64,000 bases of DNA from Sporopachydermia quercuum (Eukaryota): assembly GCA_001599295.1 (NCBI GenBank), contig BCGN01000002.1, positions 124,001 through 188,000 of the forward strand. The letters run 5' to 3'. The position numbers and the translations under genes are program-made. This document shows positions 10,010-62,693 of the stretch, piece after piece (the first letter of the stretch is position 1; each line of letters begins with the position of its first letter). Below the pieces are notes generated by a model. The model was not told where the DNA came from and made no database searches. It saw only the letters and a list, made by a program, of their open reading frames with translations.

Positions 10010-10332
10010 TAATATAAATCTGTCATCTCTTGTGACGCCTTTACATATTTTCATTTGTCCGGTGACCTGTAATTGTTATGCGTATTAAGCAATTGAAAGC
10101 TATTGTATTACCGTACAATCTTCTTATCAAGTAAATCTCAATTGCTCTAGAAACTCTTTGTTTGTTATTCTTCAATCAACCTGTCATACAAAGATTATAA
10201 TCATCCTCAGCAAGTCGTTATTACAGCTGAATTTTCGTATTTTCAGTCTGAATCAAGTGTTCCAGGTTTTATTGATTCATTCGAACTATTTCTGTTGCAC
10301 CTACAACGATAGCTTCTTATACAAAGCTTTCC

Positions 10333-19840: not shown

Positions 19841-19841
<1 letters not shown>

Positions 19842-19879
<38 letters not shown>

Positions 19880-19906
19880 ATAATAAAATAAAAATAAAAA
19901 TAAAAA
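19842..19906. repeat. 36-nt poly(dA) tract followed by TAAAA(A) repeats
   Basis: A36 at 19842-19877, then GAATAATAAAATAAAAATAAAAATAAAAA. Confidence 0.95.
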
Positions 19907-28255: not shown

Positions 28256-28649
28256 GTTAAAGCAATGATATGATTTTATGTGAATGTATTGGAATAATAT
28301 ATAAAATTACTTATGATTATGCATTATAGTAATGTATGTAGTGTGTAGGTGCTCTGACGATAGTAACGAAAGGATATTCACTCTGGTGGTGGTTTTAGTT
28401 AATAATGTCCAGATATGCAGATCTTATAAAGTAATTGCACGTTGAACGATAGATATCGTAAACGTATTATCAACTACTAATATTATAGCTCTTTAACCAT
28501 TTTCTTTGACAGTCTTTCAAACGATAGACATCAGAAAAATCGAAATTCCTACGAGTCAACTTAGGTCCATTCACCATAGTATCAACATTCTACATTCTAT
28601 TCTTTATAGAAATACTAAATATGCACAAAGCACTCAAAAATCTTCCAGA

Positions 28650-37735: not shown

Positions 37736-38013
37736 CTTGTTATATATAATGATGATTTTTGATGCGTAGAAACGATTATGCTCAGATGATATTTGCTTGG
37801 ATAATAATGTGCCAGTTGTATCAGAGAAAGCAGTTAATGATTATTACAATGAAGAAAAGAAAAATAATATGAGAGAACTATGAATATTTATTGCTTCAGC
37901 AGAATCTGGTCGGATTTGAAATATGAAGTATGGGGAATTTCGGCCTTAAGTATAAATTGGGTTATACCATTTTTAGTGTGGATAAGTCATGTGATGCAGT
38001 GGGGAAGAAACTG

Positions 38014-38019
38014 CCGAGG
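38014..38019. promoter_or_regulatory. CCGAGG/CCTCGG motif (FarA/Ctf1/Por1-type fatty-acid response element) upstream of the thiolase
   Basis: CCGAGG ~280 bp upstream of the thiolase ATG; a second CCTCGG lies at 38586-38591. Confidence 0.35.
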
Positions 38020-38258
38020 AAGTTGAGAAACCAACCGGAAGTATCTAATATGGGACAAAGAGGTAGCTTACGGATGAAGTGAACATGAATTGATAGACAA
38101 ATAGAAGGATGCAGTAGCCAAGATCCTTATGTAACGGTTAGAATCTCGGATGCTATTGTAGTTTATTTGGGTATTTCAGTTTCTTCTTGATGTTATGGCT
38201 TGCTCTGCGAAGGTATAGTTGAAACCGGTCGGCAGAAGATACGATGTGCGACGGATCA

Positions 38259-38267
38259 ATCACGTGA
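38259..38267. promoter_or_regulatory. E-box ATCACGTGA (Cbf1/bHLH-type) in the thiolase / BED-gene divergent promoter
   Basis: RTCACGTG match. Similar sites at 47956-47963 and 57703-57710. Confidence 0.35.
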
Positions 38268-39197
38268 AAGAGTTCTCTCAACATCGGCTTCACTCACAGT
38301 GGTAGCAATACATCGGAAGCGATTGAAATGAAGAAGAAGATCATTTGGTGCCACAACAAGAATCGTGTAGTAATTTTTTTGTTTGAATGTCGGGAGAAAA
38401 GTGATATTCTAGCTAACCCTTTTCCAGATTGATACTCGCACCTGCTGTTTTCTTCTTTTATTATGCATATATCAACTGAAGTGATGAGCCACTACTATAT
38501 AAATTATGTTATTTATACCAGATTCTTCTTTTCAATCCAATAACAAGTTGCCTCCGATTAAGCTTACTGTAATTAGCTGCGAACCCCTCGGTCCCTCCCC
38601 CGGTACCCCTCCTCCATCTATCCAATACGGCAGAACCAAATGTCCCAAGTCCCACTTATTGTTCACTCATCAGTAATTCCAAATATATTATCGTAGTCAA
38701 TAATTATTATCTTTTCCAGTTTTTCTTCTGTTTCGCGTCTGAAATCAAGGGCTACCAAATCAAGTAAGCCAATACCTCAATCAGGTAACACGGCCAGGAA
38801 TAGTTCCAATTCAGTTCTCTCATACATTAACAGAACACCAAACTTTTACCTGTAGGAGATTTTCGATTTTCTCCTTCCTTCACCACATCCTAAATATTAC
38901 AAGTATATTGATCCTAAATTATCAAACCTGATTTTCTAAGTTTAAAAAAAATATTATCACATTCAATAACGCATCAGTAATACTATTTATATTCTGTCGA
39001 TTTTTCATTCCTTTGGATCAAAGATTATCCTGGTTGAGTGAAAAGCTCACAAACACGAGAAAAGAAGAAAAAAGGAAAAACAAGTTATAGTGGGGAACAA
39101 ACACGAACATTTACTCCCTCGAAGAACTGCTTGCCAATCAGATAAGCCACCCGAATCAATACGACTTCATCTGAAAACTGCATCACGAAACCTTCAA

Positions 39198-40721
39198 ATG
39201 TCATATACAAAACCTCAATTTCATTCTTGGGTGTTTCGGTACGCCACGCTAGGTCCTCAGATCACTGAAGGACCAAGACTATCAAAAGCTCGTGGTAAGT
39301 TATATGAAGCAAGATGTGAAATATGTTCTAAAACGTATATCTACGATACAGCTACTGGGCCGACAAATGTTATTGCTCACATGAAACGTAACCATCAATT
39401 ACAACGCGATTCTTCTGCTTCTTTGAATGATATTAGACAAGCAAGTGGGATGGAGCCTGTCAAAGTTGATAACTCTGACGGGTTCTTTCATTTTGTTTTA
39501 ACCCCAAACAGGAAACAGAAAAGCGAAAAAGTAAGAAAGTGGTTGACTATGACGCCTGACGACGAAGGAAGTGATAAATCCAAGCGAAGGAAAACCGTGA
39601 TGGCTTCACCCTTAGCTGGACCTAAACCCAGAAAGGCCAGAGTTAAGAAAACATCATTGGATAGCGGCTCCGAACAAATTACAATTGATCCTATCATCAA
39701 CCACGCCCATATTCCAAATCCAATACCCGTTCCTGGTCCCCAGGTTATTTGCGAACCTATTTCCCAACCTCTAACAGGAAATGTGCAACCAGGAGATCAA
39801 ATAGGGTTAAACGGTTTGAATGACCAATCAGTACACAGCATTGCCAGGGAAACAATTTCACATGCAACCCACCTCGATATTATTGGAAACAGCGAAGGGG
39901 CTCAACCTGAGATCAGTGCAAAAGAGCCATCTGTACAAGAACCAGAACNAGAACAAGCACAGGCCCATGAGCAAGTGTCAGGTTCAGCACCAGAGCCAAC
40001 ACAGGAATCAGCAAAAGAAAGAGTTTTGGAAAACGTGGAAGTGAGTGAAAAGATCTCTGTTATTTCATTTGTTGAAGAAGTGGCTTCTGATGTTAATGAG
40101 GACATTTCAGCAGCAACATCTACACCAACTCCTGATGGAGATAAGGAAACCGAAAGCACATCTGGAAACGGAAATATTTATCAAAAGATCAAAACAGCAA
40201 AGGAAGTTAAATTTGATACTGAAGAGCTGAAAAAATATAATAATGTCGAAGTTGAAGTTATCACGGCAGAAGTGACTGAAGTCTCAGAACAAGATGATTC
40301 ATTAAAGGAAGAGGCTGAAGAAGTATCAGTACAACAAAGTTTTCCACAGGGAGTTCAAATGCCCGAGAAAGATGTTGCGGAAGACGATTCTGAAACTGTA
40401 AGAGAAGCAGAAGACGACTCTAAGTCAGAATCTGATCCCCCCGCGATCAAATCAATCAAATCACCATCTGATAGTTCCAACACTGTAGCTAGAGGAACTC
40501 TCTATAATTACTTGAAACGTTTTGCAAGATCAGAGAAAATATCCATTGAAACATTAACATCAGAATCTTTCTTCGAACTATTGAAATTTGTCAATGACAG
40601 TGCTGTTCTTGAAAACAGTGATTCATTGCGATCAGTCATTGACACTGATAGATTAAAGACAGATTTACGTGATCGGAAATCCAGTAGTTTTTTTGATGCA
40701 TTTGCTAGATTTAGAAGGTAA
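39198..40721 (+). CDS. BED zinc-finger protein, probably derived from a hAT transposase
   Basis: ATG at 39198 (MSYTKPQ). W...ARCEICSKTY...GPTNVIAHMKRNH fits the BED C-x2-C...H-x4-H pattern. Long acidic low-complexity linker, then C-terminal LKRFARSEKISIETLTSESFFELLKFVN. Confidence 0.7.
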   Translation: MSYTKPQFHSWVFRYATLGPQITEGPRLSKARGKLYEARCEICSKTYIYDTATGPTNVIAHMKRNHQLQRDSSASLNDIRQASGMEPVKVDNSDGFFHFVLTPNRKQKSEKVRKWLTMTPDDEGSDKSKRRKTVMASPLAGPKPRKARVKKTSLDSGSEQITIDPIINHAHIPNPIPVPGPQVICEPISQPLTGNVQPGDQIGLNGLNDQSVHSIARETISHATHLDIIGNSEGAQPEISAKEPSVQEPEXEQAQAHEQVSGSAPEPTQESAKERVLENVEVSEKISVISFVEEVASDVNEDISAATSTPTPDGDKETESTSGNGNIYQKIKTAKEVKFDTEELKKYNNVEVEVITAEVTEVSEQDDSLKEEAEEVSVQQSFPQGVQMPEKDVAEDDSETVREAEDDSKSESDPPAIKSIKSPSDSSNTVARGTLYNYLKRFARSEKISIETLTSESFFELLKFVNDSAVLENSDSLRSVIDTDRLKTDLRDRKSSSFFDAFARFRR

Positions 40722-42662: not shown

Positions 42663-44414
42663 ATGAATGGCCCTATAAATGACAATTATAATCAATCAAT
42701 GCTCGATTTCTACCATTACACAGTTTACTCCAACGGAACACTATCAAACCATACCAAATGCTACTTGTCATTCGGTGAATTCCAGCCAATTCTCCATCCC
42801 AATGGAACCGTTACCAATGGTATAAAATGCGACTATGCCTACTATGATGTCTCCGTAAGAGGTATCACTGCTATCACATGGAGTTGTCTTATGCTTGCTT
42901 CTCTCTGTTTTACAATGTTCAACCTCAGAAAACACGGAATGGAGTTCGTAAATCGGGTTAAAAATTTTCATTATCGATCCCGAAGATTCCAATGGTATTG
43001 GCTCATCATAATGCAACTATTTGCTGCCATTGCTGGCTTGTGCTCTGTTGATTATGATAGAGCTTATATTCAAGGCCAAGCGTCTCAGTTGGCTTCTGTT
43101 TTCTACTCGTTTGTTTTCGTTTTTGCCCAGCCTGTTTTGTGGGAATTAACTAGACATTGGGGCTCTTTCGAAGAAAGGAAACTATACGAAGATGACACCT
43201 ATAGGTTTGATAAATTACAGCTTAGAGCCTATATTCACATTCTAACCCCGATTTTCTATTATCTCTTCCTATTTCTCGTGTTTGCTCTAACTATAATTCG
43301 TAGCTGGACTAAACTTTACGCTTACGGCATGACGACTACTAAATTTCTAGACCGCAGATGGGAAGCTGGGATTTACTTTTCAATTCTGCTAATGGCGATT
43401 GTTTGCTTCCAGATTTGGTTTATCCGCCATCACTATGATAAACCCGGTATTCCAGTTATTATAATAATTGTTATGGTGATTGAAATGATAATGATTGCGT
43501 ACAATATAGTGGCAATGTATGATGATCGCTTTAATGCTTTGAATAACGATGCCAATGTTGTGTTTGTTGCGTGTATGGCATATTTGCCTAGTTTGCTGCT
43601 AGTAACTGCTATGAATGTTTCTGGGCTATTAAGAGAAAATGAGGATCGGATACTTATGCGATTAAGGTTTCTACGGAATAAAAAGCTTATGTCGGAGATA
43701 TATGTTAGTATGAAGCGCGCGGGCACCCTTCCAGTTAAGCCGAAGCCCTATGAAGTTGATCCGAAGTATCCCAAGCCGATATTAGAAGAATCGGAGGAAT
43801 CGGAAGGTAACTATAGTGGGACAGTCATTAAGGTTGGACACAAGGTTAAGGCTGAGATTGAGGCGGAGAATATAGGAAACAATGAAATAAAAGAAGCGCC
43901 AACTGAAACAGATACCGAGGTTTCGGGTACTTTAGTGGAAACCCTTTCCGAGAAAGAAAAAGAAGAGGAAGATGCCGCCGTAGAAGAGTTGCGAACCAAA
44001 TATGAAAACCTTCTACATCCGAAATCGGTTTTCTTCGGCTTGTTCAGGCTTTTCTATTCGGGGACTAATAACATTAACTCTCCGTTCCGGAATAATAAAC
44101 GGTATATTCCCAGACTTAAAAGCGGGAGGAATAAATTGCTTATTACCGAAGATGGAATAAAAGGTTCAAAGTATTCTAGTTCAACTCGGAGAAACTCCTT
44201 TAGAAATAAGGTCGGTACAAGGAATGTCGGCTCTTTTGTTCTTTTACCATGGCGGAAGCGGAGCGGCAACTCGCAGCATGATTTTGTACTGGACGAGTTT
44301 GATTTGGATGAAATGGAACTAAATATCGGAAACCATAACAAAAGTGAGAGCGGAAATGAAAAGGCATCACTGCCTAGTTACAATAAAGTGGTTCCAATAA
44401 CGGAAGAGGTTTGA
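42663..44414 (+). CDS. DUF2434-family fungal multi-pass membrane protein
   Basis: YTVYSNGTLSN..CYLSF, NGT..NG..C, NLRKHG, RRFQWYW and WELTRHWGSFEER motifs; multiple TM segments. Confidence 0.8.
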   Translation: MNGPINDNYNQSMLDFYHYTVYSNGTLSNHTKCYLSFGEFQPILHPNGTVTNGIKCDYAYYDVSVRGITAITWSCLMLASLCFTMFNLRKHGMEFVNRVKNFHYRSRRFQWYWLIIMQLFAAIAGLCSVDYDRAYIQGQASQLASVFYSFVFVFAQPVLWELTRHWGSFEERKLYEDDTYRFDKLQLRAYIHILTPIFYYLFLFLVFALTIIRSWTKLYAYGMTTTKFLDRRWEAGIYFSILLMAIVCFQIWFIRHHYDKPGIPVIIIIVMVIEMIMIAYNIVAMYDDRFNALNNDANVVFVACMAYLPSLLLVTAMNVSGLLRENEDRILMRLRFLRNKKLMSEIYVSMKRAGTLPVKPKPYEVDPKYPKPILEESEESEGNYSGTVIKVGHKVKAEIEAENIGNNEIKEAPTETDTEVSGTLVETLSEKEKEEEDAAVEELRTKYENLLHPKSVFFGLFRLFYSGTNNINSPFRNNKRYIPRLKSGRNKLLITEDGIKGSKYSSSTRRNSFRNKVGTRNVGSFVLLPWRKRSGNSQHDFVLDEFDLDEMELNIGNHNKSESGNEKASLPSYNKVVPITEEV

Positions 44415-45146
44415 TTAATAGCGAAGTATAGTAAAGAAGGTAATATAATAATTTGCTTCATTATAACAGAACGGGAAACGGTGCATATTTGTTTGTAGTA
44501 CTAAAATAAGGTTAAAGCTATGCAGGACTTTGGACTGAAAATGGAAATAATCCTAGGCTGGAGTAAGCCGTACTGATCTTCGTTCTCTTTAATTATATCC
44601 GATATTAAACTTTACTTCCCATAGGAGTTTTCCTCAACGTCAATACTGTCACTGAATGATCTCGGAACATAAGAGTTTCGGTTAAATTTCCAAATTGGGT
44701 CTAGTACCGATCTCACAATACCAAAGCCATAATTTAATATTGAACCATTTATTTGATTTATATACCAATTATTTATGCTAATGAATGACCAAAACAGGTC
44801 CAATTTGGACCTTATGCGAAATATACATTTCTGAATGAGGTGATAACTTCGGAACTAAAATATCACATACAACACTGGCTTTTCGATTATTTCTGTTAAG
44901 TACTAAATGTTTTCTACCTCTTTTGTCTGTATGCAACTATGCATTTTGTTGAGTTTGTATGGAAAGAGGAGTAAATATACGATCGTCTAATCATTAATTA
45001 TCTCAATTCGGAGATGGTAGAACCATTATGAATTCCGGTATGTGCTTTCCAAAAGATTTCTANTATTATTTCCGCTTTCCTCCGGTGTTATCTAAAGTTT
45101 ACCTTACCTCTGATGTTATCCTATATTCTTTATTTTTCCGCTTTTA

Positions 45147-47603
45147 TTAATTATAACCCCTCTTCAACCGATTAACTTCTTCCTGCAATGCCCGTAAATC
45201 GGACAAAATGTCTACCGAGTTTACAGGTTTATCCGAATTTAGGTTACCTAACTCCGAATTAATCACCGGACTTCCTCTTTCAGCTTTCAGAGCATCAATG
45301 TCGGCCTTTAAACTTTGTAAATCAACCATAACCTCTGAGTTGGACAACTGTGTCGGAAGCGGCGGCGGAGGTGGGGGCTGGGCCAATGGGACTGCGGAGC
45401 CGACTCCAACAGATTGTGCACGTTCAGTGCGAATATTTGGCACGGGTGAATTTATCGATCTCGGAACAGGAGGAAGGGGCGGAACAGGTGGAACGGTTCT
45501 CGGAATAAATGGTGCATCCATGCTGGAAACTGTCATTCTTCTCGGGGGTGGGGGCGGGGGGAATCTTACTGGTTCCACATTTGTTTCTTGTACATGTTCA
45601 TCGCCTCGGTAAGCATCTGAAACGGATTTCGAGCGGTTAGATCTTCGCGATTTTGGTGGTGCTGGGGGGGGAGGCGGAGACTTTGNAGCTCGGGACGGAA
45701 CCGGAGGCGGAACCGGAGGCTGAGGTATCATTGCATCTGAGTTATTACCAGTATCAGAAATACTTTGTACGACCGGAACTTCTCTCGGAACTAGAACCGG
45801 AGGCGGAACTGGAGCTGGAGTCAAAGTTGGAGTCGGGGTTCGGGAATTACCATAACTGGAACCAGAGATGTTTGTAATTGAGTCGCTTGATCCGTCGTTT
45901 AGGAAGAACTCGGGATTGATGTTTTGTGGTACACCATTCTGTAGCATGCTATCAATATTAACATTTCTGAAATGATTAATCGATGTGTCTAAATCTTTTA
46001 GTTCTTCTTCCACAATTTCATCGGCATCGGCATCGGCAGCGGCATTGGACCTTGGAACGGAATTGAATGGTTCCGTGACAGTGACGGATACTCTCGGAGG
46101 AGATGTCAGAGGATTGTACGTGTATGCTACCCTATTGTTGCCCACTTGGCTATGCAGCAATTGGTTCATTGGCACTTTTGTGATATCCGCTTTGACAAAA
46201 TTCGGAGCAATGTTAGATTGATCCGCGTTTTCTCCAGTTTCTATTTCCGCTACCGCTTCCGTTTCGTTAATGAAATCTGTGGTTCCATCATCAAAAGAAC
46301 ATTCCTCGGCAAATCTCACACTACGCTTCCGGGAACTTCTATCTTCTTCCGGAACAGCGTCCTCTTCCGATTCCGTATTCGAGCCTTGTTTGGCCAGTTC
46401 AATTGAACTTACAGACCGCGAAGGTTGCAACGGCTCGAACCGGTTCAACGGATTCAACGGATCGTTCTTTGGTAAATGGCCAGTCAACAGAAAGCTCGTG
46501 AAGCCGTCGATATCTAGTTTTGACTGTGGATCCTCCGAGGTTGACAAGCCTCTGCTCTTCCGACGATTCAGAATCGATTTAGGTTTCGGTATCGGAGCGG
46601 GCTCCAGCAAAAGTTTTTCGTCTATGGGTTTCCCGTTTGAAGCATGAGAAACAAGCCGAAGAAAAGCATAAAAATTAGACGGATCAAGGAAATTTTCGGG
46701 AAATATAGATTTGATTTTTTCCTTGGTTTCCTGTGAAAGTCTAAAGTTTGCTACAAACTCCAACGCATCTTGCAAAGATATCAATTCCGTTTTCTTCCTC
46801 AGAAGTAAGTTTCGGTACCATCGAGAGTAAGTGTGGATTTCTTCTGCGCTCAATTGGTGGACTAATAGAGACGGAATGATCTTGTGGAGATGAGAATGCG
46901 GGAACCGAGAAGGACTTGATCGGCCGGAGATATCCGAAGGTGATGTAGTCTCTGAGGGTCCAGATTCAAGGTGAAAGGATGGTTTCGGAAGGTTTGAGTC
47001 GGAAAAGAAGCCAGAATGAATACTAGGCTTCAAGATGTTCAGATGATTCGAGCTTAGTCCGTGTTTTCCCGCTTCTGGTGCTACATCATTTCCGTTACTA
47101 TTATCAGTTTTGAACCCAACGATATCTTCTATAGATAGGAACCCTTTCCGTTTTCCTTCATGAATTCCGTCATTGTTTCCAAAACTAGGAAATTTACGGG
47201 ATAATCCGGTTGCGTCCAGCTCAGAACCAGAGCTCGTTTCCGGGCCGGAACTGTTATCGCCATTAATATCGGAGCTCTGTTCTACTGCTAAAAATTGACT
47301 GGGATCGGAAGGCGAGGACGTGGGGTTTCCGAAGGAAATTCTCGGAGGAGGGGGAAGCGATATATTAGATCCGCTATTACCAACACTATTTGTTCCGCTA
47401 TCAAGTCTGCTGTGATTTCCGTTATCTCCCAGTTGCGCCTGATACTGCTGGCTATTCATGCCATTGTCAGAAGAAGACCTTGAAATTTCCTGTCGAACTC
47501 CGAGAAATTGCCCCGAGTTCGGATGAGCCGTTCCATTAGTAATGGGAGCCGCCAACATTGCGGCGAACTCCGCTGCTCCGAGCTTTCCACCGGAACCGCT
47601 CAT
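45147..47603 (-). CDS. SCD5: Scd5-like PP1-targeting endocytosis/cortical actin protein
   Basis: ATG at 47603. LSAEEIHTYSRWY, FYAFLRLVSHA, LDIDGFTSFLLTG, an RVxF-type PP1 docking motif RKRSVRF, and a Pro-rich C-terminus. Confidence 0.75.
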   Translation of the reverse strand: MSGSGGKLGAAEFAAMLAAPITNGTAHPNSGQFLGVRQEISRSSSDNGMNSQQYQAQLGDNGNHSRLDSGTNSVGNSGSNISLPPPPRISFGNPTSSPSDPSQFLAVEQSSDINGDNSSGPETSSGSELDATGLSRKFPSFGNNDGIHEGKRKGFLSIEDIVGFKTDNSNGNDVAPEAGKHGLSSNHLNILKPSIHSGFFSDSNLPKPSFHLESGPSETTSPSDISGRSSPSRFPHSHLHKIIPSLLVHQLSAEEIHTYSRWYRNLLLRKKTELISLQDALEFVANFRLSQETKEKIKSIFPENFLDPSNFYAFLRLVSHASNGKPIDEKLLLEPAPIPKPKSILNRRKSRGLSTSEDPQSKLDIDGFTSFLLTGHLPKNDPLNPLNRFEPLQPSRSVSSIELAKQGSNTESEEDAVPEEDRSSRKRSVRFAEECSFDDGTTDFINETEAVAEIETGENADQSNIAPNFVKADITKVPMNQLLHSQVGNNRVAYTYNPLTSPPRVSVTVTEPFNSVPRSNAAADADADEIVEEELKDLDTSINHFRNVNIDSMLQNGVPQNINPEFFLNDGSSDSITNISGSSYGNSRTPTPTLTPAPVPPPVLVPREVPVVQSISDTGNNSDAMIPQPPVPPPVPSRAXKSPPPPPAPPKSRRSNRSKSVSDAYRGDEHVQETNVEPVRFPPPPPPRRMTVSSMDAPFIPRTVPPVPPLPPVPRSINSPVPNIRTERAQSVGVGSAVPLAQPPPPPPLPTQLSNSEVMVDLQSLKADIDALKAERGSPVINSELGNLNSDKPVNSVDILSDLRALQEEVNRLKRGYN

Positions 47604-48674
47604 GATGCCTTTAGTATGAAAGAAATTAGGTTTTTCTGAAATCTCGGATTCTGATGTGATATGGGTATAGTAGCACTTAAGCCAAGTAAATGCGAATGCA
47701 GAACATACAGGAAGCACAAATGTCCGGAGCGGAAGAACTCGGGATTCAACGGAATCTTAATCAGTGTGTTGTTGTGTTTGCAATTGTTGAATTGTATTCC
47801 TATGATAAGAAGAACAAGAAAGTAACAATCGGATCAAGTCGAATTATCCCACTTCAGATCAATTCAGAGTCTAATTCCACGTTTCTCGGAATAGCACAAA
47901 ACTCCGGTTTTCCCGTTAAGCCATACAGCTTGTCTCTAGGCCTCAGGTCCGATTCTCACGTGAACTGCTCTTCTATCTACAAATAGAAACACTTAAACAG
48001 CTCCGACACCACAAACAGCACATCAAATCAAATGCTCAAAATGAGTCTGTAACGTCTAGAGTATTTCGATTTTTGATTTGTGTAGATAATGGAAGCTTTT
48101 GAAGGATCTGATAGGAAAAAAGGCAGTGAGAATGGATATATTTAGTGTCTTCATTAATTATATGAATATGTATATAATGTTAGAAGTGTTTGTGGTAATA
48201 ATGGTAAGAATAAAGTATGTACAAAAGCCTAAAGAAGTAATTTTTGATATGTTACCCGGATTGAAAAGAAGGGGGAATTACAGAAGATGGTATTAAAATA
48301 ATGAGAGGGAAGATAAAACTGGGACAACAATAATAAGTCAGGAAATTTATCTAGTAATACTATTATGGAGGGGGTAATTAAGTATTATCCAGTAATGATT
48401 TAATAATAAACATTTCTGTTTTGCCCAAATAATTCAATGTAATTGAAAGGTGCTCTCTTCTTTCACTATAAAGTAAGAAGCAGTTCAGGAGACCAGAAGA
48501 CAACTTTTGCAGTACATCCCATCTCGTCTCGTTTGCAGTCAGTACCACTTTACGCAGGAAAGGAAAATTACATATACAGATAAGAACAGTTCCGCTTTCT
48601 AGCTGGAAGGCGGCTCGGAAAATGGTGCGCCTACGGATAGTATCAGCCTATTTGGATATATTACACAACACAAA

Positions 48675-49757
48675 ATGAAACCTTCAGGGTTTAGATTGAA
48701 CCTAAAGTCAAGTAAGAAAACGAAGAAGGCAGAGAGTAAACCCAAAACCAATGTTTTCGGTATAGACGTGGCTTNCGAAGCATTTCCGGAAGCTCTCGGA
48801 ACAGAAGCATTACATAAAACTGGCTCTGTGATCTCTGAGAACACAAATGCAAAGTTTTTAACCCTGAAATCAATTCGGACTTCTAATTCGGAGTCTCGAA
48901 ACCATTCTGCTGATTTGGAACATTTATCAGTCTTTGCTTATGACGAAAGTTATGACGCCATGAAAGCGGGTCAAATCCTCAAAGAGCAGAAAAAGATCGA
49001 GCAGGAAAAAGCAGGATCGAAGTATCTTGATAAGTTGTTGGAATCCCGAGCGCAGAGAAAGAAAGATCTGGAGCGAGCTCGGGATCGAAGGATTCAGAAG
49101 GAGAATGCTGGTAGTGATGCTCAGCTCAATGATACAGAAGTTTTTGTAACTTCGGCATATTACAAACAGTTAGAAGAGCAGGAGTTAGAAGAGGCGGAAG
49201 AACAGAAAAGGATTTCAGAGCTTTCAGAACGGAAAAAATTGACCGGATTAGGTAAGATATATGAACAGATACTGGAAAGCGAAGAAGATAATGGGAATAG
49301 TGATAATCCAATTACCGAGAGAGAAGCAGCTGATTACCTAAAGGAGAAAAAGGTTCGGGAAGAGGAGTTACTCAATCGGGCAACTGAAATTAATAAAGCC
49401 GAAGGTTACAATAAGGTTGAACTCAATGATGACGGCGAAATAGTAGATGAGGGACAGGTGTTATCGGTGGGGTTAAATGTATTTGCCAAACCGAAAGGTG
49501 CGGTAATTTCAAATTCAGACGAGGAGGTAGCGGATAAAATATCGGATAGTAAAGCGGGAACGATTTTGAATCAGCCGGACGATCGGATATCGGAAACGGA
49601 ACAATTTTTGCGAAGCTTACAGCAACCGAAAGAAGAACATAGAAATACCACTGTGTTTGGAACAAAAACTGAAAATAAAGCACAAGACCGCAAAAGGATA
49701 TTAATCGCAGCTCGGGAGAAATATTGGAAGCGGAAAAAAACAGAACGATTACAATGA
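48675..49757 (+). CDS. NSRP1/CCDC55-like (DUF2040) coiled-coil splicing regulator
   Basis: SVFAYDESYDAMK, SKYLDKLL...RKKDLERA, IQKE and EVFVTSAY motifs. Confidence 0.8.
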   Translation: MKPSGFRLNLKSSKKTKKAESKPKTNVFGIDVAXEAFPEALGTEALHKTGSVISENTNAKFLTLKSIRTSNSESRNHSADLEHLSVFAYDESYDAMKAGQILKEQKKIEQEKAGSKYLDKLLESRAQRKKDLERARDRRIQKENAGSDAQLNDTEVFVTSAYYKQLEEQELEEAEEQKRISELSERKKLTGLGKIYEQILESEEDNGNSDNPITEREAADYLKEKKVREEELLNRATEINKAEGYNKVELNDDGEIVDEGQVLSVGLNVFAKPKGAVISNSDEEVADKISDSKAGTILNQPDDRISETEQFLRSLQQPKEEHRNTTVFGTKTENKAQDRKRILIAAREKYWKRKKTERLQ

Positions 49758-49913
49758 ATTACATAATAGGGTGTTGTTTTGGGTATGGTATATTATAATA
49801 CATATATTAATATTAGCATTGATTAGGCTTCATAAATTAATTAGGATGGTTCACCATGATTCATTAAACCTTGGTTTCTGGGTTCCGACAAATCCAGGAA
49901 AGTAGAACCAATT

Positions 49914-52900
49914 CTATCTGTAAATATTTAACAATTCTTCTTTCGTAAAGTCTTCAGCTACTTGAAGCGGGTCTTCGGCGAACCCTGAATTGTTCCTGAA
50001 CTCTATTCCATTCATAGGTACTCCCATGTCCAATTCCGATATATTTTCCGTAAATTTCTTATCATTTCCGCTACCCTGCAGCTTCTTATTATTGTAAGTC
50101 TTGCTTCTATGTTTATTTGTTTCTATAATCATATCTGTCTGTGGTATTCCGCTATCTGGTTCAAAACTCTCCATATTACTTCGGCAAATCCGTCCGTACT
50201 CAACTGGCTTTCCCTGCGTCAAATTTCGGTGCATTTGTCCGTACCAGGTCTCAATTTCCTGTATGCGATCTCCGGTTTGTTCCGTTTGAGCTTTCACAAA
50301 AGCCTCAAGATATAATTTCTCCTCATCCGACGAAAGCGGCTCCACAAACTTCTTACGAAGTTTGTACGGATACTCCATGAGCTTATCGTCAAACCCCATT
50401 TCTACGATTTTATCATCTAGCAACGGATCCGATTCCCGTTCCGCTTCGGCTTTCCATCTGGATTGTGTGTCGCTTTCCCTTTCTTCTCCCGGTTTTTTCC
50501 GAGATAGCAAATCTTGTATTGTCAAGGAAACCCCTGGTGGGATAGGATCAGGATTCGAAGGAGTAATACAATCCAAATACACTTCCTTCCGCAAAACTCT
50601 ATCTATGTCAATTGCTGAAAAAAAAGCACAACTTTGTGGAATATCATTAATCCCAACTTGTTCACAAAACAACGCTCGGGTCCACAGATTCGCAATTTGT
50701 AACGCCATGCTGGTTCTGTACTTATCCGCTTCCGAGCTGAAAAACCGAGCTTCGTCATGGACTGTTATGCACAGCCTAGTGTTTATGTGATACTTTTTGA
50801 TTAGGTAATCCATAGCTACTAGTAGTAAATGCAAATAATCTACGCCGGAAGATTGGATTGCCCAATTTACCCGGGAAGTTCCAAATTTGTTCCGATTAAG
50901 GTTTCGGGTTTGTAACGCTTCAGTTATCCCCGCGCCTAAGGCTGGAGTTTGTGGCTTTGGTGAAGCAGCTACCGCTTCTAATTTATTGAAAAGAATTGAT
51001 TCGGAACCGCCATGATAAAAATCGGGTTGTTTCCAGAACAAATCGGAATGAAATTTCTTGCCCTTTGTGGAAGAATAAAGCTTCGAAGCGGTGGAACTAA
51101 CCTCGGAATCAGATAGATTCGGATTGAACTGTTTTAGTAGCTGTCTGGCAAATCTCAGTCCTGCTCCGTATATGCGGCCATAGTTGAATATCTTGGCTTC
51201 ATTCCGAGAAATTCCCAGAAGCTCGGCTGTTTTAGAATGTAAATCAGTCTTCTCGGCTTTAGTTCCTTCTAGAGTCATCCATCCGATCGGAGATCCGCCA
51301 TGGATTCCGAATACCGAATCCCCGATAAGAGATGCTATCCATAATTCTTCCGAGTCGACGTCGGCTCCCACAAAGCAATATCCGGGCGGAGCTCGGATCA
51401 TGGCTTTTAGTTCCGATCCAATCCTATTCTTTTTGGAGTTTGAAGCGGTTAGCCATGTATTTTCGACTGCTCTTCGGGTAACTGTCCCCATGGGGATAAT
51501 ATTTGGGAGAATAATTCCGATCTTTTTCGGTTTATTTGCCAAATCAGTGCTTGAACTTTGCAACTTACTCTCATTGTCAACCTTGAACTTATTCTCTTCC
51601 TGAACTTCCACCACAAACTGACTCATAATCCTCTCCCGGGCCGAAACCCAATAAGAACACATAGTATTCATATCTAAAGCTTCCCTAGCTAACGGATACT
51701 CGGATGTGATTACATTCTTATCGAAATAAGGTTGGTATCCTTTAGCCATAACCGAGGTACACCTAGCGTTAATGCCGTCTTTGTGGGGAACTTTAACTAG
51801 GATAGAATTTTCGGGATTAAGTTCGGAATCGTAAGAGTTCGGAATTGGTTGATAAACATTAAACAGCTTTTCAGATAAGACCGGATCAAGATCAACGGGC
51901 AGAATTTTATAGTTTCGTGATTGATAATAAGGTTCATCTCGGATATGAATGACGAAACACCATCCGAATTCATCCGACCATAATAAAGGACGGGTGTTCC
52001 ATTGTAATTTTAATAACACCGGGGCAAGCCGAGATCTAACCGTGAGATTTAGATCCGAAAGTTGGGTTCTAGCCCCGGAAGAGAATAAACTTCGGTACCA
52101 ATTTGGGAATCCGGGAAGCTTTTGCCGAGCCACAGGAATAAGGTTTCCGTTCTTATCGGGGTTTTTCCGATATTTCACCGGGATGGTCGTCCAATCGAGT
52201 TGCATAAGCCATGGGTCGGAACGCCAGTTAAATTTCATTCCGGGATTTGGGCCATTTGAGCCATTTGTGGCAATTGAGTTATCATTACCTCCTTCTCCTT
52301 CTTTTGTTTCAATTCTCTCTTTGTCATTTCCGATTCCTTGGTCTCGCTTCCGCTTTTGCTTCTGCTTTTGATTGTCTGTTTCCCGGGTATCTTCTCCATT
52401 TTTCACAGGCTCTTCCGGTTTTTCCCGAAACTCAACCGCTTCAATCGCTAACGCTNTCAACCGATCAATAACTTCTTTCCGATGTTTTCCGTATAACTCT
52501 TCGGCAGACTTCACATATTTGTTCCATTTTTCATCTGTAGGAAGAAAACTCGAAGAGATATGCCGAAGCCCCGCAAAACTTACTGGATGCGGACATACTT
52601 GGAGAAACTTCGGAAGAACCTCCTTGAACACCAAATGGGTTAAATAAGTGTCATTAGCGCAATATGATACTAACTTATGGAATTCCTCGGGGAAGATCGC
52701 TCCGATATCTTCCTTTTCAAACTCTGATCGGAGAGATTTATCAGCATCTACCCCGCAATGTAATTTGGCCACATCGGCTAAATTATTTAATGCCGATTTC
52801 TCTACCCATGATCCATATTCCGAGCTTGACTCGGAATCATTTAAGTCCGATCCAAAAGTCGGCGAGTCATCTAAATGAGGGTTACCGAGTAATTCGCTTA

Positions 52901-53975
52901 ATCCGTCGGTCTTTGATTCTTTTAGGAAATCTGCTTTACTCTTTTGAGGTTTGGTAGCATCACTAGATTTCCGGACTTTATCCGATTTGGATTTTATCCA
53001 CATTGGCCGTTGACGGGAACACATACCAGAGACGGCAACATGTAAAGACATTGTGTCCAAAAACATAGCCTCTGAAAGTTTGAGGTTATATTCCGATTTC
53101 AGCCGAGCTCGGTCATAAGATACGTTATGTCCGACTAGAAGTCTCGGCTTCTCGAAAGTATCCAGTGGAATTAAGGTTTGCGGTATCTGCGGAGTCTGGG
53201 GGGTATTTTGAAAAATATCAGGTGAAACCCAAACATACCATGCCGCCGGAGAAGCCGCAGTTGCTATAACAGGATAAGGTGAAATCTTATACATAACCTC
53301 AGTATCAAACACTAATAATTCATCGGGAGGGTAGGGCACGGTCTCGGGAGCACACCCGGCTCTATATCGGGTCCATCCGGGTTGATAAATCCAGTCTTCA
53401 GAACTAGGTTTTGGGGGAAGATCTTGCTCGGCTAACGATTTCGCATACTGTAAATAAGGTTCCGCCGAGAATAAGCCAATCCTATGGAAGTGTTCGTCTA
53501 ACGACGATCCGAGGAGTTCCGGAGTCTTGAATGAGATCGGATCCGATATACATGTTTTCTTACCGAGAAGACCATTGTCGGCTAAAGCATTTTTTGAGAT
53601 TTGAATTAGCCGTTGGGAATGATCAGATAACACAGTCGGTGGTTGGGCTGTTGGGAACAGTTGCTTGTGAAGTTGGGAAGAAAGCAGTTGGATTCCGACT
53701 GGATTAATGCGGGGCGGCTCTATTGAATGTCCCGATTTGGATATGTCCGAAAACGCTGAGATTGTTTTGTGGCTGAATTCTCTAATCTGTATTGGGGCCA
53801 AATTAAGTAGTAGGACGTTATAAGTGTATGATGTATGGTAATAGTGATTGAGATAGTTTCTGGTACAAATCAGGTTCCGAGCAGGAATTCTGCCGGAACC
53901 AAAACCTGAACCCCCGCCTAAACACAAGACTATCCGAGCAGCGCTCCAGGAGTCTCCGATAATACGAAAAGCCAT
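49914..53975 (-). CDS. MIP1: Mitochondrial DNA polymerase gamma
   Basis: PRINPVGIQLLS; ExoI FDTE, ExoII GHNVSYDRAR, ExoIII YCAND; PolA VGADVDSEELW, PolB RNEAKIFNYGRIYGAG, PolC VHDE; SRVNWAIQSSGVDYLH. Confidence 0.98.
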   Translation of the reverse strand: MAFRIIGDSWSAARIVLCLGGGSGFGSGRIPARNLICTRNYLNHYYHTSYTYNVLLLNLAPIQIREFSHKTISAFSDISKSGHSIEPPRINPVGIQLLSSQLHKQLFPTAQPPTVLSDHSQRLIQISKNALADNGLLGKKTCISDPISFKTPELLGSSLDEHFHRIGLFSAEPYLQYAKSLAEQDLPPKPSSEDWIYQPGWTRYRAGCAPETVPYPPDELLVFDTEVMYKISPYPVIATAASPAAWYVWVSPDIFQNTPQTPQIPQTLIPLDTFEKPRLLVGHNVSYDRARLKSEYNLKLSEAMFLDTMSLHVAVSGMCSRQRPMWIKSKSDKVRKSSDATKPQKSKADFLKESKTDGLSELLGNPHLDDSPTFGSDLNDSESSSEYGSWVEKSALNNLADVAKLHCGVDADKSLRSEFEKEDIGAIFPEEFHKLVSYCANDTYLTHLVFKEVLPKFLQVCPHPVSFAGLRHISSSFLPTDEKWNKYVKSAEELYGKHRKEVIDRLXALAIEAVEFREKPEEPVKNGEDTRETDNQKQKQKRKRDQGIGNDKERIETKEGEGGNDNSIATNGSNGPNPGMKFNWRSDPWLMQLDWTTIPVKYRKNPDKNGNLIPVARQKLPGFPNWYRSLFSSGARTQLSDLNLTVRSRLAPVLLKLQWNTRPLLWSDEFGWCFVIHIRDEPYYQSRNYKILPVDLDPVLSEKLFNVYQPIPNSYDSELNPENSILVKVPHKDGINARCTSVMAKGYQPYFDKNVITSEYPLAREALDMNTMCSYWVSARERIMSQFVVEVQEENKFKVDNESKLQSSSTDLANKPKKIGIILPNIIPMGTVTRRAVENTWLTASNSKKNRIGSELKAMIRAPPGYCFVGADVDSEELWIASLIGDSVFGIHGGSPIGWMTLEGTKAEKTDLHSKTAELLGISRNEAKIFNYGRIYGAGLRFARQLLKQFNPNLSDSEVSSTASKLYSSTKGKKFHSDLFWKQPDFYHGGSESILFNKLEAVAASPKPQTPALGAGITEALQTRNLNRNKFGTSRVNWAIQSSGVDYLHLLLVAMDYLIKKYHINTRLCITVHDEARFFSSEADKYRTSMALQIANLWTRALFCEQVGINDIPQSCAFFSAIDIDRVLRKEVYLDCITPSNPDPIPPGVSLTIQDLLSRKKPGEERESDTQSRWKAEAERESDPLLDDKIVEMGFDDKLMEYPYKLRKKFVEPLSSDEEKLYLEAFVKAQTEQTGDRIQEIETWYGQMHRNLTQGKPVEYGRICRSNMESFEPDSGIPQTDMIIETNKHRSKTYNNKKLQGSGNDKKFTENISELDMGVPMNGIEFRNNSGFAEDPLQVAEDFTKEELLNIYR

Positions 53976-54931
53976 ACGATTCGCTTGAATCTGCTCTGGA
54001 AATCCCGATCGTATGCACAGGTATTAAAATTTCAGTAGTACTGGAAAGTCATCACAAGTACAAAACTAGTTGGTGAGTCGAACAATTAGTCCAACTTTCG
54101 GGTTTGTGAAGTAATTTCGAAAGCCAGAACATTGCCGAAATAGTTTCCTACATTTTGGTCTGAAGCTATAAGAAGGACTGTGCAATTTTGTTGCCCTTAA
54201 GATTTATCTTCCGCATTTTGTGATTATTTTTCATACAGACTAAGAATTTTATATGATTACGTGATATGTATTGAATTAGTTATTGAAATAAATGATAACA
54301 TAATCAGAAAACATCTCGTTTTGACTTAGCAACTTTACACCTATACACCATCTGCCAACGCACTGTATTTTTGTAACGTCCCCTACCACAGAGAACTGAC
54401 CTAGTATTAAAGTTTGTGCGAAGTTTGAGTTCTGTGCAGCCATCCACTACAGCCACAAACATTTACCAGCAGGAGACACAAAGTTAACTTGCACTTACTG
54501 ACAACCAACAATCTAATCATCACCTTTCAACGAATGCTACATACATTTACTACACAATCTTCCGTTTTTACAACATCACGACATCAATCAAACGATCAAT
54601 TCCACTCAATTTATTATAGTTAATATATTTTAATAAGTTGTTCTTATAGTTATCATAATAAGAAGCGAATTAGCTGAATTTCCATTCAATTGATTGTTTC
54701 CTATTCATATTCATAGTATCAACAAAAGAAGTACCTAATTTTATAGGAAGCCATTGACTGATTAGTTAATTAATTGCTCACTCACTTTCTAGTACTACAC
54801 GATACTATATAAACCAATTGTGATCTCCAACTGGAATTTAAACAGTTTGATTGATTTTCACAGGCATCTTTCTCCTTTCTTGCTATTCAATTGCTTTGAA
54901 TTCAACTCAGAAAACACAACTCATAATAACA

Positions 54932-60653: not shown

Positions 60654-61162
60654 AAGTTAATGCATTCTATCGTCAGACCTTGGGGAAAAGCAGTGATCCT
60701 GCTGTGCATAGGAAACATAAGGAGAAGCTCTGGAGATGGGTAACTAAAAAGCAATAGAAATGAAAGGAATATGGTGAATGGGAATGAAATGGAATTATTG
60801 ATGTGATAGGGTGTGTTGTTGAAAAGAGTAAGGAGCAGTCGTTAGATAGCATTACGTACTTTCAAAGTTAGTTAACTGGTGTAGAAGGTATTAGACAATA
60901 TAAAAGTAATTACTCATGAAACAAACTACTAATGAAACAAACACCTGTATGTAATTGATTATTAGTTTGTTTTGGTTTCTCATGATGAAATAGTGTAGCA
61001 AATGAGTTTTTGTCAAGGTATGATAGACATATTGACTGTTCGTATGTTTTGCCAAGTCTTTCGTTGATAATAGCTGCTATTATTGTAATGAATGTCAGTA
61101 CCAGTGGTTGTTGTAGTATTGGTATCATACTGTAGTGATGATGTTATGATGGAATTTCTTCA

Positions 61163-62693
61163 TTAAGATAGTGATGTAAATTCATTTATAAACTCTTCAA
61201 ACTTGACTTCCTCATTTCTCTGCGATTCCTCAGTTTCAACATTTGATGTACCATCTACAATCATTCCTTCCATTAAACTACTGAATCCTATATGATTTGA
61301 TGAAAAATCCAGGTCTTTGAGATTGATAGCACTGCTATAAATCATACTAAGATGGGGATATCCTCCTTCTCCTGGTACGAAATCACCACTGGACTCCCAA
61401 AACATGACGCCGCCTAACTTTAGCATCATAACATAATCACATTTCTCTCGCAAGCTGAACAGATTTTCAAACTGAATAATATAATTTCTGGTGGGGTTTA
61501 TAGTGAAGACTGATCTTGTGATAGGTTCAATTGACGCCGGATCACTATTCATTACGATGTCCTTATATCCAGCCTTATCAAAATCTCCTTTGTGTGTATA
61601 AGGAGTGCCAAGAGAGATACTACCACCAAATGAGCGACCATACAAAGGAATNCCTATAACGATCTTATTATGGGGTATTCTCTGAGCAAGTAGTATTTTC
61701 ACTGCAGTATCGACAGAATCAACACAGCTGGTGTCCATGGCTCCTGCTATGTATAAGTTGCTTACTGGTTTCACTGTTGTGCACCATGGTTCAGGTGCTG
61801 CGAAGTCATATGTCATGAGATTCCAGAAATCTATATACTCATCCAATGCTTTAGATTGAAGTTTTTCAAGGTAGAATTGGCTCCCCGGTGCAGCAATTGA
61901 TATTAGAAACCGTTTTCCATATTTCTCGTGCAATTTGTTAAACCCATTACGCAGTAGTCTTACTGCCGATAGAAGTATACGGTTATCTTCTGCTGTTTCA
62001 ACGTATTCCCAGTCGATATCAACACCATCGGCACCGTATTGCTCTAGTACGTTTATAACGGAGTTTACAAAGCTTACTCGCTGGGGTTGTGAATTCAAAT
62101 ATGCGCGGAAATGACGTCTGAATGACCATCCCCCGATAGACAGCATTGTTTTCAAATGCGGATACTTCCGTTTTGCTTGGAATAGCTGTTGAAAATTACA
62201 ATCTTTTCCCATAGGTCCTTTTGTCGTTGTGGCTCCTAGGTCCCCCCAGAGGTCTGATAGAGCTAATTGTCCACTAGGAGCAATATCTAGGAACGCATAA
62301 ATGAGATGAGTAATTTTGTCCAAAGGTAGATTTTTGATATGATGCTGTTTGTAGCGCATCCAGCTAGCATTTGTTAGTATTGTTGAATATGGTGGGATTC
62401 TGAAGTCGAAATGAGAGAAAAGAATAGGAAGCAGCATGGGAGTTCGTGATGAACACTGGAAAAACGAATGTTACCCGTATGTATCTAACAGTGGAAATAC
62501 AATATAGATAGTTGCACATATCAAAGGACGGGACAATTAGCATAAACTTCTCTGGTGGGTTTTCTGGCCCTTGACTATCTGCTTTTCTTCTAATCTCTTC
62601 AACTTTTTCACATGATATTAAATCATTCACACAATCAGCTTAGTATACATACCCTCCATAGTAAACGACTTGTCTGTATTCCGTTTTTGACAT
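61163..62693 (-). CDS. CTS2: GH18 chitinase without signal peptide (Cts2-like); exons 62693-62653 and 62363-61163
   Basis: Spliced N-terminus MSKTEYRQVVYYGG|WMRYKQH..LPLDKITHLIYAF via intron 62652-62364 (GTATGT..TACTAAC..TAG). KTMLSIGGW, DGVDIDWE catalytic motif, NLMTYDF, GGVMFWE. Confidence 0.85.

Follow-up and report, generated by a model that had tools for sequence, protein, structure and literature searches.

Kilobase-sized patches enriched in a single trinucleotide, CCG/CGG, overlie conserved genes of the budding yeast Sporopachydermia quercuum

We analysed a stretch of 64,000 nucleotides from Sporopachydermia quercuum (positions 124,001 to 188,000 of contig BCGN01000002.1, assembly GCA_001599295.1), hereafter the window, in which the trinucleotide CCG and its reverse complement CGG (together CCG/CGG) are about six times denser from 43.6 to 54.1 kb than in the rest. 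The DNA is AT-rich, with a GC content of about 0.35 outside this feature, and Pfam matches identify a budding-yeast gene set: two KTR-type mannosyltransferases, a thiolase, a DUF2434 protein, an NSRP1_N protein, MIP1, V-ATPase subunit E, MRS2 and a GH18 chitinase. We segmented the window with a two-state hidden Markov model (HMM) on 100-bp bins. This gave six high-density segments of 0.3–5.5 kb, amounting to 20% of the window, with 30–41 CCG/CGG per kb against a background of 6.3 per kb; the model favours similar patch rates by construction. The two largest segments, patches A and B, and the genes they touch are as follows (all coordinates are those of the window).

42663..44414, plus strand: DUF2434-family gene (Pfam PF10361, E = 1.3e-67, amino acids 22–294)
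43601..48000, unstranded: patch A, 182 CCG/CGG, 41.4 per kb
45147..47603, minus strand: SCD5-like gene, proline-rich, the name being a lead only
48001..48600, unstranded: gap at baseline over the divergent promoter of the SCD5-like and NSRP1-like genes, 4 triplets in 600 bp, low state of the HMM
48601..54100, unstranded: patch B, 220 CCG/CGG, 40.0 per kb
48675..49757, plus strand: NSRP1_N-domain (NSRP1-like) gene (Pfam PF09745, E = 1.1e-22), with 100-codon blocks at 0.27–0.46 of the CCG/CGG maximum attainable by silent changes (the silent maximum)
49914..53975, minus strand: MIP1, mitochondrial DNA polymerase gamma (Pfam PF18136 and PF00476)

The SCD5-like protein matched no Pfam family, and its atlas match to the 'Protein SCD5 family' scores 0.86, under the 0.9 level. 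Patch A starts inside the DUF2434-family gene, close to the end of its Pfam domain, and covers the 3' 800 bp of this gene, the convergent intergenic DNA (more weakly) and the SCD5-like gene together with some 400 bp upstream of its start codon. Patch B covers the NSRP1_N gene and the whole of MIP1; its right end lies some 125 bp upstream of the MIP1 start codon. The interval 43601–54100 carries 405 of the 817 CCG/CGG of the window, the remaining 53.5 kb having 412 (Poisson log10 p = −144).

The original prediction, made from the letters alone, had described here one domain of about 10.5 kb, saturated with TCCG, CGGA, CCGA and TCGG, that ignores gene, strand and frame boundaries. The saturation is real (37.3 per kb in 43640–54220 and 5.5 per kb elsewhere), and 366 of the 501 CpG dinucleotides in that interval lie within CCG/CGG. 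The by-eye counts offered in its support were exact (13 CpG, 11 of them in CCG/CGG, at 52021–52200; 5 and 2 at 27301–27480), and non-coding DNA is affected as had been said: all 5 CpG at 45000–45140 are in CCG/CGG. The bias also starts inside one gene, at the left border of 43.6 kb, and its boundaries are sharp at a resolution of 100–200 bp. The single block did not hold: patches A and B are separated by the 600-bp gap, and four more patches lie elsewhere. Independence of strand and frame was borne out by the tests described below. Independence of gene boundaries was borne out only in part, as borders tend to lie near the starts of open reading frames (ORFs) and intergenic DNA is less enriched than coding DNA. 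Within 43601–54100, non-coding DNA has 17.2 CCG/CGG per kb, 3.3 times the 5.2 per kb of ORF-free DNA outside, and coding DNA about 44 per kb.

The enrichment is specific to one word. For word statistics, we defined the rest of the window as positions 6601–37000, from 38601 or 38801 to 42500 or 43500, and 54201–64000; positions 1–6600 and about 37–38.8 kb, which hold other patches, were set aside, and the small patches at 10.3 and 61.8 kb were kept in. Relative to this rest, CCG/CGG is 5.7 times more frequent inside, compared with 2.2 times for CGC/GCG, 2.1 for CCC/GGG and 1.04 for ACG/CGT. The matrix of NCGN tetranucleotides rises only where there is a 5' C or a 3' G: CCGA (7.9 times), CCGC (6.8), CCGG (7.8) and CCGT (2.5) contrast with TCGA (1.0), TCGC and GCGA (1.2 each), ACGA (0.8), ACGT (0.5) and GCGC (2.4). 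Hence, the apparent rise of TCG and GCG comes wholly from TCGG and GCGG. Words made only of G and C but lacking CCG/CGG rise about 2–2.7 times, as expected from the higher GC content, whereas words containing it rise 6.5–8.4 times. A general habit of placing G or C next to G or C is ruled out by this matrix and by the silent sites unable to form the word (see below). The flanks matter too: with an A in front or a T behind, the word is favoured about 3-fold less. Most frequent are CGGAA/TTCCG (102 inside versus 39 in the rest) and TCCGA/TCGGA (95 versus 38), and the top hexamer is TTCCGA/TCGGAA (44 versus 9).

The same contrast appears along the sequence. One-kilobase windows from about 43.5 to 54 kb have an observed/expected ratio (O/E) of CpG of 0.77–1.27, with 48–83% of CpG in CCG/CGG, while windows elsewhere mostly have 0.3–0.9 and 8–50%. 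In 200-bp bins, CCG/CGG climbs from 0–3 to 7–16, whereas CpG in other contexts stays at about 2–3 per bin throughout. The suggestion that CpG is simply protected from mutation in this region does not fit as it was put: other CpG contexts are not enriched, and CCG/CGG stands at about twice its random expectation. The GC content of the feature is only 0.42. Masking CCG/CGG lowers coding GC from 0.439 to 0.360 inside and from 0.388 to 0.372 outside; the GC excess thus vanishes and consists of this word alone. A CpG island was rejected because only CpG in CCG/CGG context is raised, the GC content is 0.42 and the promoter at 48001–48600 is at baseline.

The other four patches are smaller, and are listed here with the gene that contains the largest of them and with one neighbouring gene.

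4611..6584, minus strand: Nup53/35-like nucleoporin gene, containing the next patch
5001..6500, unstranded: patch in the Nup53/35-like gene, 54 triplets, 36 per kb
10301..10600, unstranded: small patch at the 5' end of a CofD-family gene (ATG at 10333), 10 triplets, 33 per kb
37901..38400, unstranded: small non-coding patch between the thiolase and BED-finger genes, 15 triplets, 30 per kb
39198..40721, plus strand: ORF of 507 amino acids with a weak zf-BED match (E = 1.4e-4, amino acids 36–67)
61801..62200, unstranded: small patch in the GH18 chitinase gene, 12 triplets, 30 per kb, with 10 of 29 attainable triplets in the second block

The patch at 37901–38400 contains no ORF longer than 65 amino acids, which shows that the effect does not need coding DNA. 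Its plus strand has 12 CGG and 3 CCG (nominal p = 0.035), and this is the only nominal strand bias among the non-coding pieces, none being significant otherwise. Within genes, 100-codon blocks reveal a plateau of 0.34–0.50 of the silent maximum in the SCD5-like gene and of 0.31–0.57 in MIP1. The successive blocks of the DUF2434 gene reach 0.32, 0.09, 0.31, 0.29, 0.50 and 0.43. The patch of the Nup53-like gene has a core of about 600 bp at codons 300–500, with blocks at 0.53 and 0.63 and flanks at 0.12–0.25. Among the 12 patch borders, the distance to an ORF start is at most 150 bp for four (p = 0.019 under random placement) and at most 450 bp for eight (p = 0.004); stops are always more than 400 bp away.

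We then compared genes inside and outside the feature. The outside set comprises 12 ORFs (1890–2705, 7509–8759, 10333–12216, 15762–16970, 26801–28255, 28650–30059, 34339–35619, 36491–37735, 39198–40721, 56267–56857, 58569–60653 and 61163–62437), and the inside set the SCD5-like gene, the NSRP1-like gene and MIP1. From the test of two-fold pyrimidine (Y) sites onwards, the C-terminal part of the DUF2434 gene was added to the inside set; in that test alone, its N-terminal part (42663–43601) was counted among the outside genes. The Nup53-like gene and the ORFs at 2–649 and 22732–23205 are in neither set. All two-fold codons, together with those of Leu, Ile and Val, have the same usage inside and outside. 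The changes concern codons such as CCG for Pro (from a share of 0.06 outside to 0.35 inside), CGG and CGA for Arg (0.08 to 0.30 and 0.07 to 0.20), TCG for Ser (0.05 to 0.20) and GCG for Ala (0.06 to 0.22). Phase counts show that all three codon phases of CCG and of CGG are raised, about 4–10 times, and the sense strand is enriched in both words. C generally makes up 0.35 of two-fold Y sites inside versus 0.38 outside, but 0.56 versus 0.27 before a codon starting with GG.

Words that span codon boundaries give the same picture. MIP1 has 130 such CCG/CGG, compared with 84.4 ± 6.1 in 300 synonymous shuffles (z = 7.5), and the SCD5-like gene has 77 compared with 55.4 ± 5.0 (z = 4.3), while seven outside genes have z between −1.5 and −0.4. 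The share of the silent maximum reached per gene is 0.35–0.46 inside and 0.03–0.16 outside. Silent sites that are able to form CCG/CGG differ between the sets (p = 1.2e-43 at four-fold sites, p = 0.003 at Y sites). Silent sites that are unable to form it do not: p = 0.084 at four-fold sites, where C goes from 0.14 to 0.16 and G from 0.14 to 0.17, p = 0.65 at Y sites and p = 0.41 at two-fold purine (R) sites. The enrichment thus outlasts correction for GC and amino-acid content, whether by the silent maximum, by shuffling, by masking or by the incapable sites. The claim that it is not gene-specific codon usage but a context-specific feature of the DNA is upheld by the two-fold codons, the GG-dependent Y sites, the shuffles and the incapable sites. 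A translational cause acting through codons or codon pairs was rejected: all phases, codon-boundary words and non-coding words are enriched, and two-fold codons are unchanged. We also rejected RNA structure selected through CCG/CGG pairing, since the mean z of local structure in 150-nt windows (MIP1 −0.35, SCD5-like +0.34, NSRP1-like −0.21) is as in five outside genes (−0.44 to +0.11).

Which changes led to the word can be read from the silent routes into it. Five of the six are clearly raised: CC[N] to CCG (0.35 inside versus 0.06 outside, odds ratio 8.8), C[N]G to CGG (0.33 versus 0.07, 6.9), [N]GG to CGG (0.56 versus 0.19, 5.2), C[N]G to CCG (0.25 versus 0.09, 3.5) and CG[N] to CGG (0.52 versus 0.26, 3.0). 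The sixth, [N]CG to CCG, has small numbers (0.41 versus 0.35). First-position changes follow the same trend, as AGA is replaced by CGA after a preceding C in 17 of 36 cases inside and 4 of 50 outside. Both transitions and transversions contribute; for example, CCT drops more than CCA. One context-specific type of mutation cannot raise all these routes, which points to a bias for the finished word or to its slower loss.

The proteins are intact. Aligned with 14 yeast homologues, MIP1 retains 415 of the 498 conserved columns, and its Arg residues fall on conserved Arg in 14 of 37 cases when encoded by CGG or CGA and in 9 of 32 when encoded by other codons. As the conserved residues are kept, the recoding is truly silent and not a sequence error. 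The Pro content of MIP1, 6.2%, is the highest of the 15 aligned sequences, and at conserved columns where MIP1 differs, P, R, G, A and S together account for 33% of its residues, versus 12–29% in eight controls. The push on the amino acids of MIP1 is at most mild. Across the gene sets, Pro makes up 7.3% of residues inside and 4.5% outside. The SCD5-like gene and MIP1 also contain ATG-started antisense ORFs of 125–140 amino acids on the plus strand (45208–45612 and 46270–46647 in the former, 50377–50790 and 51949–52371 in the latter). These likely result from the recoded sense strand being poor in TCA, TTA and CTA (TCA/TGA is at 0.64 times).

The feature is not an artefact of assembly. Logan contigs from two read sets, X1 and X2 (2016 and 2023), are identical over 40001–60000 and bridge both borders, which excludes an assembly chimera, although both sets may derive from the source strain and thus not be independent biology. 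They match the window except for one gap at position 42559, in non-coding DNA upstream of the DUF2434 gene, where the X2 contig is 2 bases shorter than the window and X1. The window also contains 29 isolated single N bases (for example at 720, 45063, 45686 and 52456) that show no relation to the patches; the one at 45063 falls on a contig break in X2. Neither read set contains a second diverged copy of the region at 80% likeness. Two other organisms of the same sequencing study provided only pieces of 31–53 bases with 3–8 differences, of no use as orthologues.

The genes are in their ancestral places. The best named relatives of MIP1, inside the feature, reach 49% identity (Pachysolen), and those of MRS2, outside it, 50–53% (Wickerhamomyces, Pachysolen). 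Since the relatives of both are at best about 50% identical and all belong to the Saccharomycotina (Pachysolen, Wickerhamomyces and others), the host is a budding yeast without a close relative in the protein collection. Hence the equal affinity of the two proteins, at about 50% identity, has low power. The order SCD5-like, (NSRP1-like), MIP1, VMA4, MRS2 spans the right border of the feature uninterrupted. In Pachysolen and Naumovozyma, MIP1 and MRS2 adjoin on one contig (the source names being YOR330C and YOR334W); this shared neighbourhood indicates that the gene order here is ancestral. The order of the SCD5-like gene, MIP1, V-ATPase subunit E and MRS2 (45147–62437) also agrees with YOR329C–YOR334W of S. 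cerevisiae, where YOR329C, the neighbour of MIP1, is SCD5 and YOR332W is VMA4. An additional NSRP1_N gene lies here between the SCD5-like gene and MIP1, and the DUF2434 gene lies to the left. A non-homologous insertion was rejected given the ancestral order kept across the right border, with which homologous replacement is still compatible. A tract introgressed with a general composition of its own was rejected because only word-capable sites differ from the background. A classical tract of GC-biased gene conversion (gBGC), or a region rich in GC at third codon positions (GC3), does not fit either, given the unchanged incapable sites and two-fold codons and a masked GC of 0.360 versus 0.372.

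The other fungal loci examined lack this pattern. As a control we used 80 metagenome loci found with the MIP1 alignment (1.02 Mb, best segment identity at most 57%). In 31 other fungal MIP1 loci, the O/E of CCG+CGG is 0.48–0.96 in the gene and 0.50–1.01 in the flanks, compared with 2.19 in MIP1 here, and CpG lies in CCG/CGG in 33–47% of cases in MIP1 and 30–46% in the flanks, compared with 77% here. With an O/E of at most 0.96 in these loci, a property specific to MIP1 is ruled out. Among 1,911 one-kilobase windows of the 80 loci, the O/E has a median of 0.79, a 99th percentile of 1.27 and a maximum of 1.52, so that none exceeds 1.6; the 19 windows inside the domain have a median of 1.97 (range 1.19–2.64).

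The words are not arranged as repeats or as an array. Gaps between triplets are near random (coefficient of variation 1.2), and searches for CGG/CCG spacing, dyads and periodicity found nothing beyond multiples of three and overlapping CCGG. For the proposed dense CGG protein-binding sites, no site-like spacing was found, and we rejected an array for Zn2Cys6 dimers (CGG-Nx-CCG) given the lack of a preferred spacing or orientation of half-sites. Searches for tRNA genes, Rfam families and repeats that could mark the borders returned nothing but the KTR paralogue pair, and none of these features occurs in the patches or at their edges; direct repeats of at least 40 nt are absent. A repeat family, triplet array or transposon remnant was rejected given the absence of direct repeats, the near-random gaps and 8-mers that occur at most 9 times. 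The KTR-type (GT15) genes form an inverted, tail-to-tail pair at 27275–29621 whose arms are 70–77% complementary over stretches of 120–345 nt. They lie outside the patches and have the lowest CCG/CGG saturation of the window, 0.03–0.08 of the silent maximum. The window also has long stretches with few ORFs of at least 90 amino acids from stop to stop (12217–15761, 16971–22731, 23206–26800 and 30060–34338), which is unusual for a budding yeast. The 5.7-kb stretch 16971–22731 has a single such ORF, 92 amino acids long. These stretches could be long intergenic DNA, intron-bearing genes or decayed genes.

Together, the observations require a force that is specific for double-stranded CCG/CGG, blind to frame, weak relative to selection on amino acids, strong at silent sites and confined to kilobase patches. 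Our preferred explanation, to which we give roughly one chance in three (about 0.35), is a recombination-linked fixation bias for CCG/CGG that acts in place; that fixation rather than mutation is biased, that recombination is involved and that the bias acted in place are inferences. In this lineage, on an ordinary AT-rich background, fixation would favour the double-stranded word as a unit, most strongly in the absence of a preceding A or a following T. Such a bias would most likely take the form of biased gene conversion, or of short-patch correction of mismatches, that depends on sequence context and settles heteroduplex in favour of the CCG/CGG-bearing strand. Its action would be confined to places where heteroduplex is frequent, in tracts running from break sites in promoters into gene bodies. 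Selection on proteins would let silent changes alone pass, so that genes would be recoded to about 35–55% of the silent maximum while their proteins stay conserved. The logic would be that of gBGC, with a word specificity such as that of the very-short-patch repair by Vsr in E. coli. A single force would then account for the patchiness, for borders close to gene starts and for the use of every route into the word. Patch sizes of 0.3–5.5 kb and borders near ORF starts give a geometry that resembles conversion tracts, while the ancestral gene order, the equal affinity of MIP1 and MRS2 and the absence of a second copy suggest that the genes are in place.

Vsr shapes the frequencies of words related to CCWGG in E. 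coli, where it acts across the genome on a single T:G mismatch position, in partnership with Dcm methylation. As in our case, a repair bias toward a short word raises its frequency in any frame, and over-representation regardless of frame was found here. The differences are that all three positions are favoured here and that the effect is patchy. The words expected as mismatch products, CTG/CAG, stand at 0.90 times, which is no clear depletion.

Several points weigh against this explanation. We know of no enzyme whose mismatch correction favours each of the three bases of such a word; for Vsr and TDG/MBD4 the action is limited to a single position. Ordinary conversion tracts should include the promoter in which breaks occur, yet 48001–48600 is at baseline, and this has to be explained, for which constraint on the promoter sequence is needed. 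The plateaus of the SCD5-like gene and MIP1 are flat and sharp-edged, with no gradient away from promoters. The like density of all patches fits one shared equilibrium, as would result from mosaic ancestry, with the bias of the HMM to be kept in mind. The left border at 43.6 kb falls within a gene, as do the two ends of the chitinase patch. The anchoring of patches at gene 5' ends is a hint from a weak test, done post hoc on only 12 borders, and the recombination link and the direction of change are only inferred. The fuller statement, that a hitherto undescribed, drive-like, trinucleotide-biased gene conversion or a word-restoring repair writes promoter-anchored kilobase tracts into genes of a budding-yeast lineage, is accordingly tentative, and we regard it as rather unlikely as worded.

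The main rival, which we rate somewhat lower, is mosaic ancestry. In this scenario, the patches would be tracts of conversion or introgression in which homologous DNA of a relative, another lineage or haplotype, replaced the resident copy; the CCG/CGG force would have acted genome-wide in that relative and be absent from the recipient. This would account for the sharp-edged plateaus without gradient, for the shared density of 30–41 per kb in patches of 0.3–5.5 kb and for borders inside genes; one event per patch suffices, and the conserved gene order is expected under homologous replacement. The GC-rich region of Lachancea kluyveri chromosome C spans about 1 Mb and shows a global rise in GC. 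The left arm of this chromosome, read as introgression according to parts of PMC9246145, is a precedent for composition-distinct introgressed regions in budding yeasts and resembles our patches in having its own codon usage in an otherwise uniform genome. It differs in that the patches here are of kilobase scale, concern one word, keep the conserved gene order and have a background like that of the flanks. Mosaic ancestry still needs the same unexplained word-specific force, with hybridization in addition, and a donor whose remaining silent sites all agree with those of the recipient. None of the 1,911 windows of 80 fungal loci carries such a signature (maximum O/E 1.52, versus the domain median of 1.97), and the lack of a second, homeologous copy in the two read sets makes a recent hybrid unlikely. 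Short tracts would suggest an old event, yet the products of CpG decay are not in excess (CTG/CAG 0.90 times, CCA/TGG 1.11 times), which is a weak test. The shared phylogenetic affinity of MIP1 and MRS2 also counts against this rival, with little power without a close relative.

We find it improbable, though worth considering, that a CGG-reading DNA-binding protein, of Zn2Cys6 type or derived from BED fingers of hAT elements, selects for the words or protects them. Dense sites might mark a chromatin state, or bound words might mutate more slowly, and cooperative binding could make the patches self-reinforcing and sharp-edged. Recognition of double-stranded DNA would agree with a strand-symmetric, frame-independent word, and all routes would be raised if the finished word were favoured or decayed slowly as a sink. 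The flanks, of CGGA/CGGAA type, resemble zinc-cluster half-sites, and hAT elements carry arrays of subterminal CGG-type motifs. CGG-binding proteins arose repeatedly from zf-BED/hAT domains, fungi included, as described in parts of Yellan et al. 2021 (PMC8097297), and our patches have in common with these systems dense CGG words that a BED-type domain could read and a weak zf-BED gene nearby. The ORF at 39198–40721 lies 2.9 kb from patch A, between it and the non-coding patch 37901–38400 upstream of the gene; nothing links the gene to the patches, and its placement may be chance. Its BED match is weak, and neither a hAT/Hermes domain, nor any other domain, nor a solved relative was found for it. 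Unlike hAT elements, the patches encode conserved host proteins in ancestral order, and no transposon features or repeats were found in them. Furthermore, about 400 sites in 10 kb, mostly within ORFs, would each have a tiny selective value, no preferred spacing or dyads exist beyond multiples of three, and promoters, the usual place of factor sites, are the least enriched. Protection alone would have to slow mutation about 7-fold at all three positions.

A regional mutation bias is less probable again. In certain transcription units, CCG/CGG would here arise from misincorporation that depends on neighbouring bases or from template slippage, tied for example to transcription or a repair polymerase. 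Patches do begin near gene 5' ends, and the central promoter is enriched less than coding DNA and than the DNA beside the SCD5-like ORF. A slippage-type signature in CCG context, cCg to cGg under methylglyoxal, is described for yeast in parts of PMC12288878, but it merely interconverts CCG and CGG. At least five silent routes are raised, including transversions (CCT to CCG) and the first-position change of AGA to CGA, and no single mutational mechanism does this. Sense and antisense strands do not clearly differ, and the DUF2434 and Nup53-like genes are partly covered, with no consistent 5' or 3' polarity. Lastly, an ordinary cause (codon or codon-pair usage, amino-acid content, a gBGC region, repeats, or an artefact of assembly or contamination) is very improbable, because the proline-rich SCD5-like protein, the higher Pro content inside and the stronger enrichment of coding DNA would fit it, but the silent-maximum shares, the constant two-fold codons, the out-of-frame and non-coding words, the lack of direct repeats or of any 8-mer present more than 9 times, the identical contigs of 2016 and 2023 across the borders and the O/E of MIP1 in the other fungal loci do not.

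The case is one of regional, non-adaptive compositional heterogeneity, set apart by its single-trinucleotide signal and its kilobase grain. The nearest published parallel that we found is in the Saccharomycotina, where GC3-rich and GC3-poor genes are physically clustered, and parts of PMC9246145 leave the cause open, with recombination, replication timing and introgression proposed. These clusters are alike in that a regional, non-adaptive shift of silent sites affects neighbouring genes on both strands. They consist of a general change in GC3, sometimes across hundreds of genes, whereas here a single trinucleotide changes in patches of 0.3–5.5 kb and incapable sites do not. Vertebrate CpG islands are also kilobase stretches with a CpG O/E of about 1 in a CpG-poor genome, but here only the CpG of CCG/CGG rises, the GC content is moderate, gene bodies are covered and the promoter is a dip. 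A literature search, restricted in library and terms, retrieved no account of a yeast with regions enriched specifically in CCG/CGG.

The usual reading of regional shifts at silent sites is GC-biased conversion, replication timing or introgression, and each of these comes with a general change in GC. Here the signal is one trinucleotide on an identical background, so that a single force is isolated with an unusually clean signature. In particular, changes that create the word and changes that destroy it are directly countable, which makes fixation bias, mutation bias and ancestry testable. About a fifth of the window has a codon usage (35% CCG for Pro, 30% CGG for Arg) that is misleading for models of translational selection and for screens for foreign DNA. 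If word-specific conversion is indeed the cause, conversion bias can be specific to a word and not merely GC-biased, and the density of CCG/CGG along the chromosome would be a fossil map of recombination initiation.

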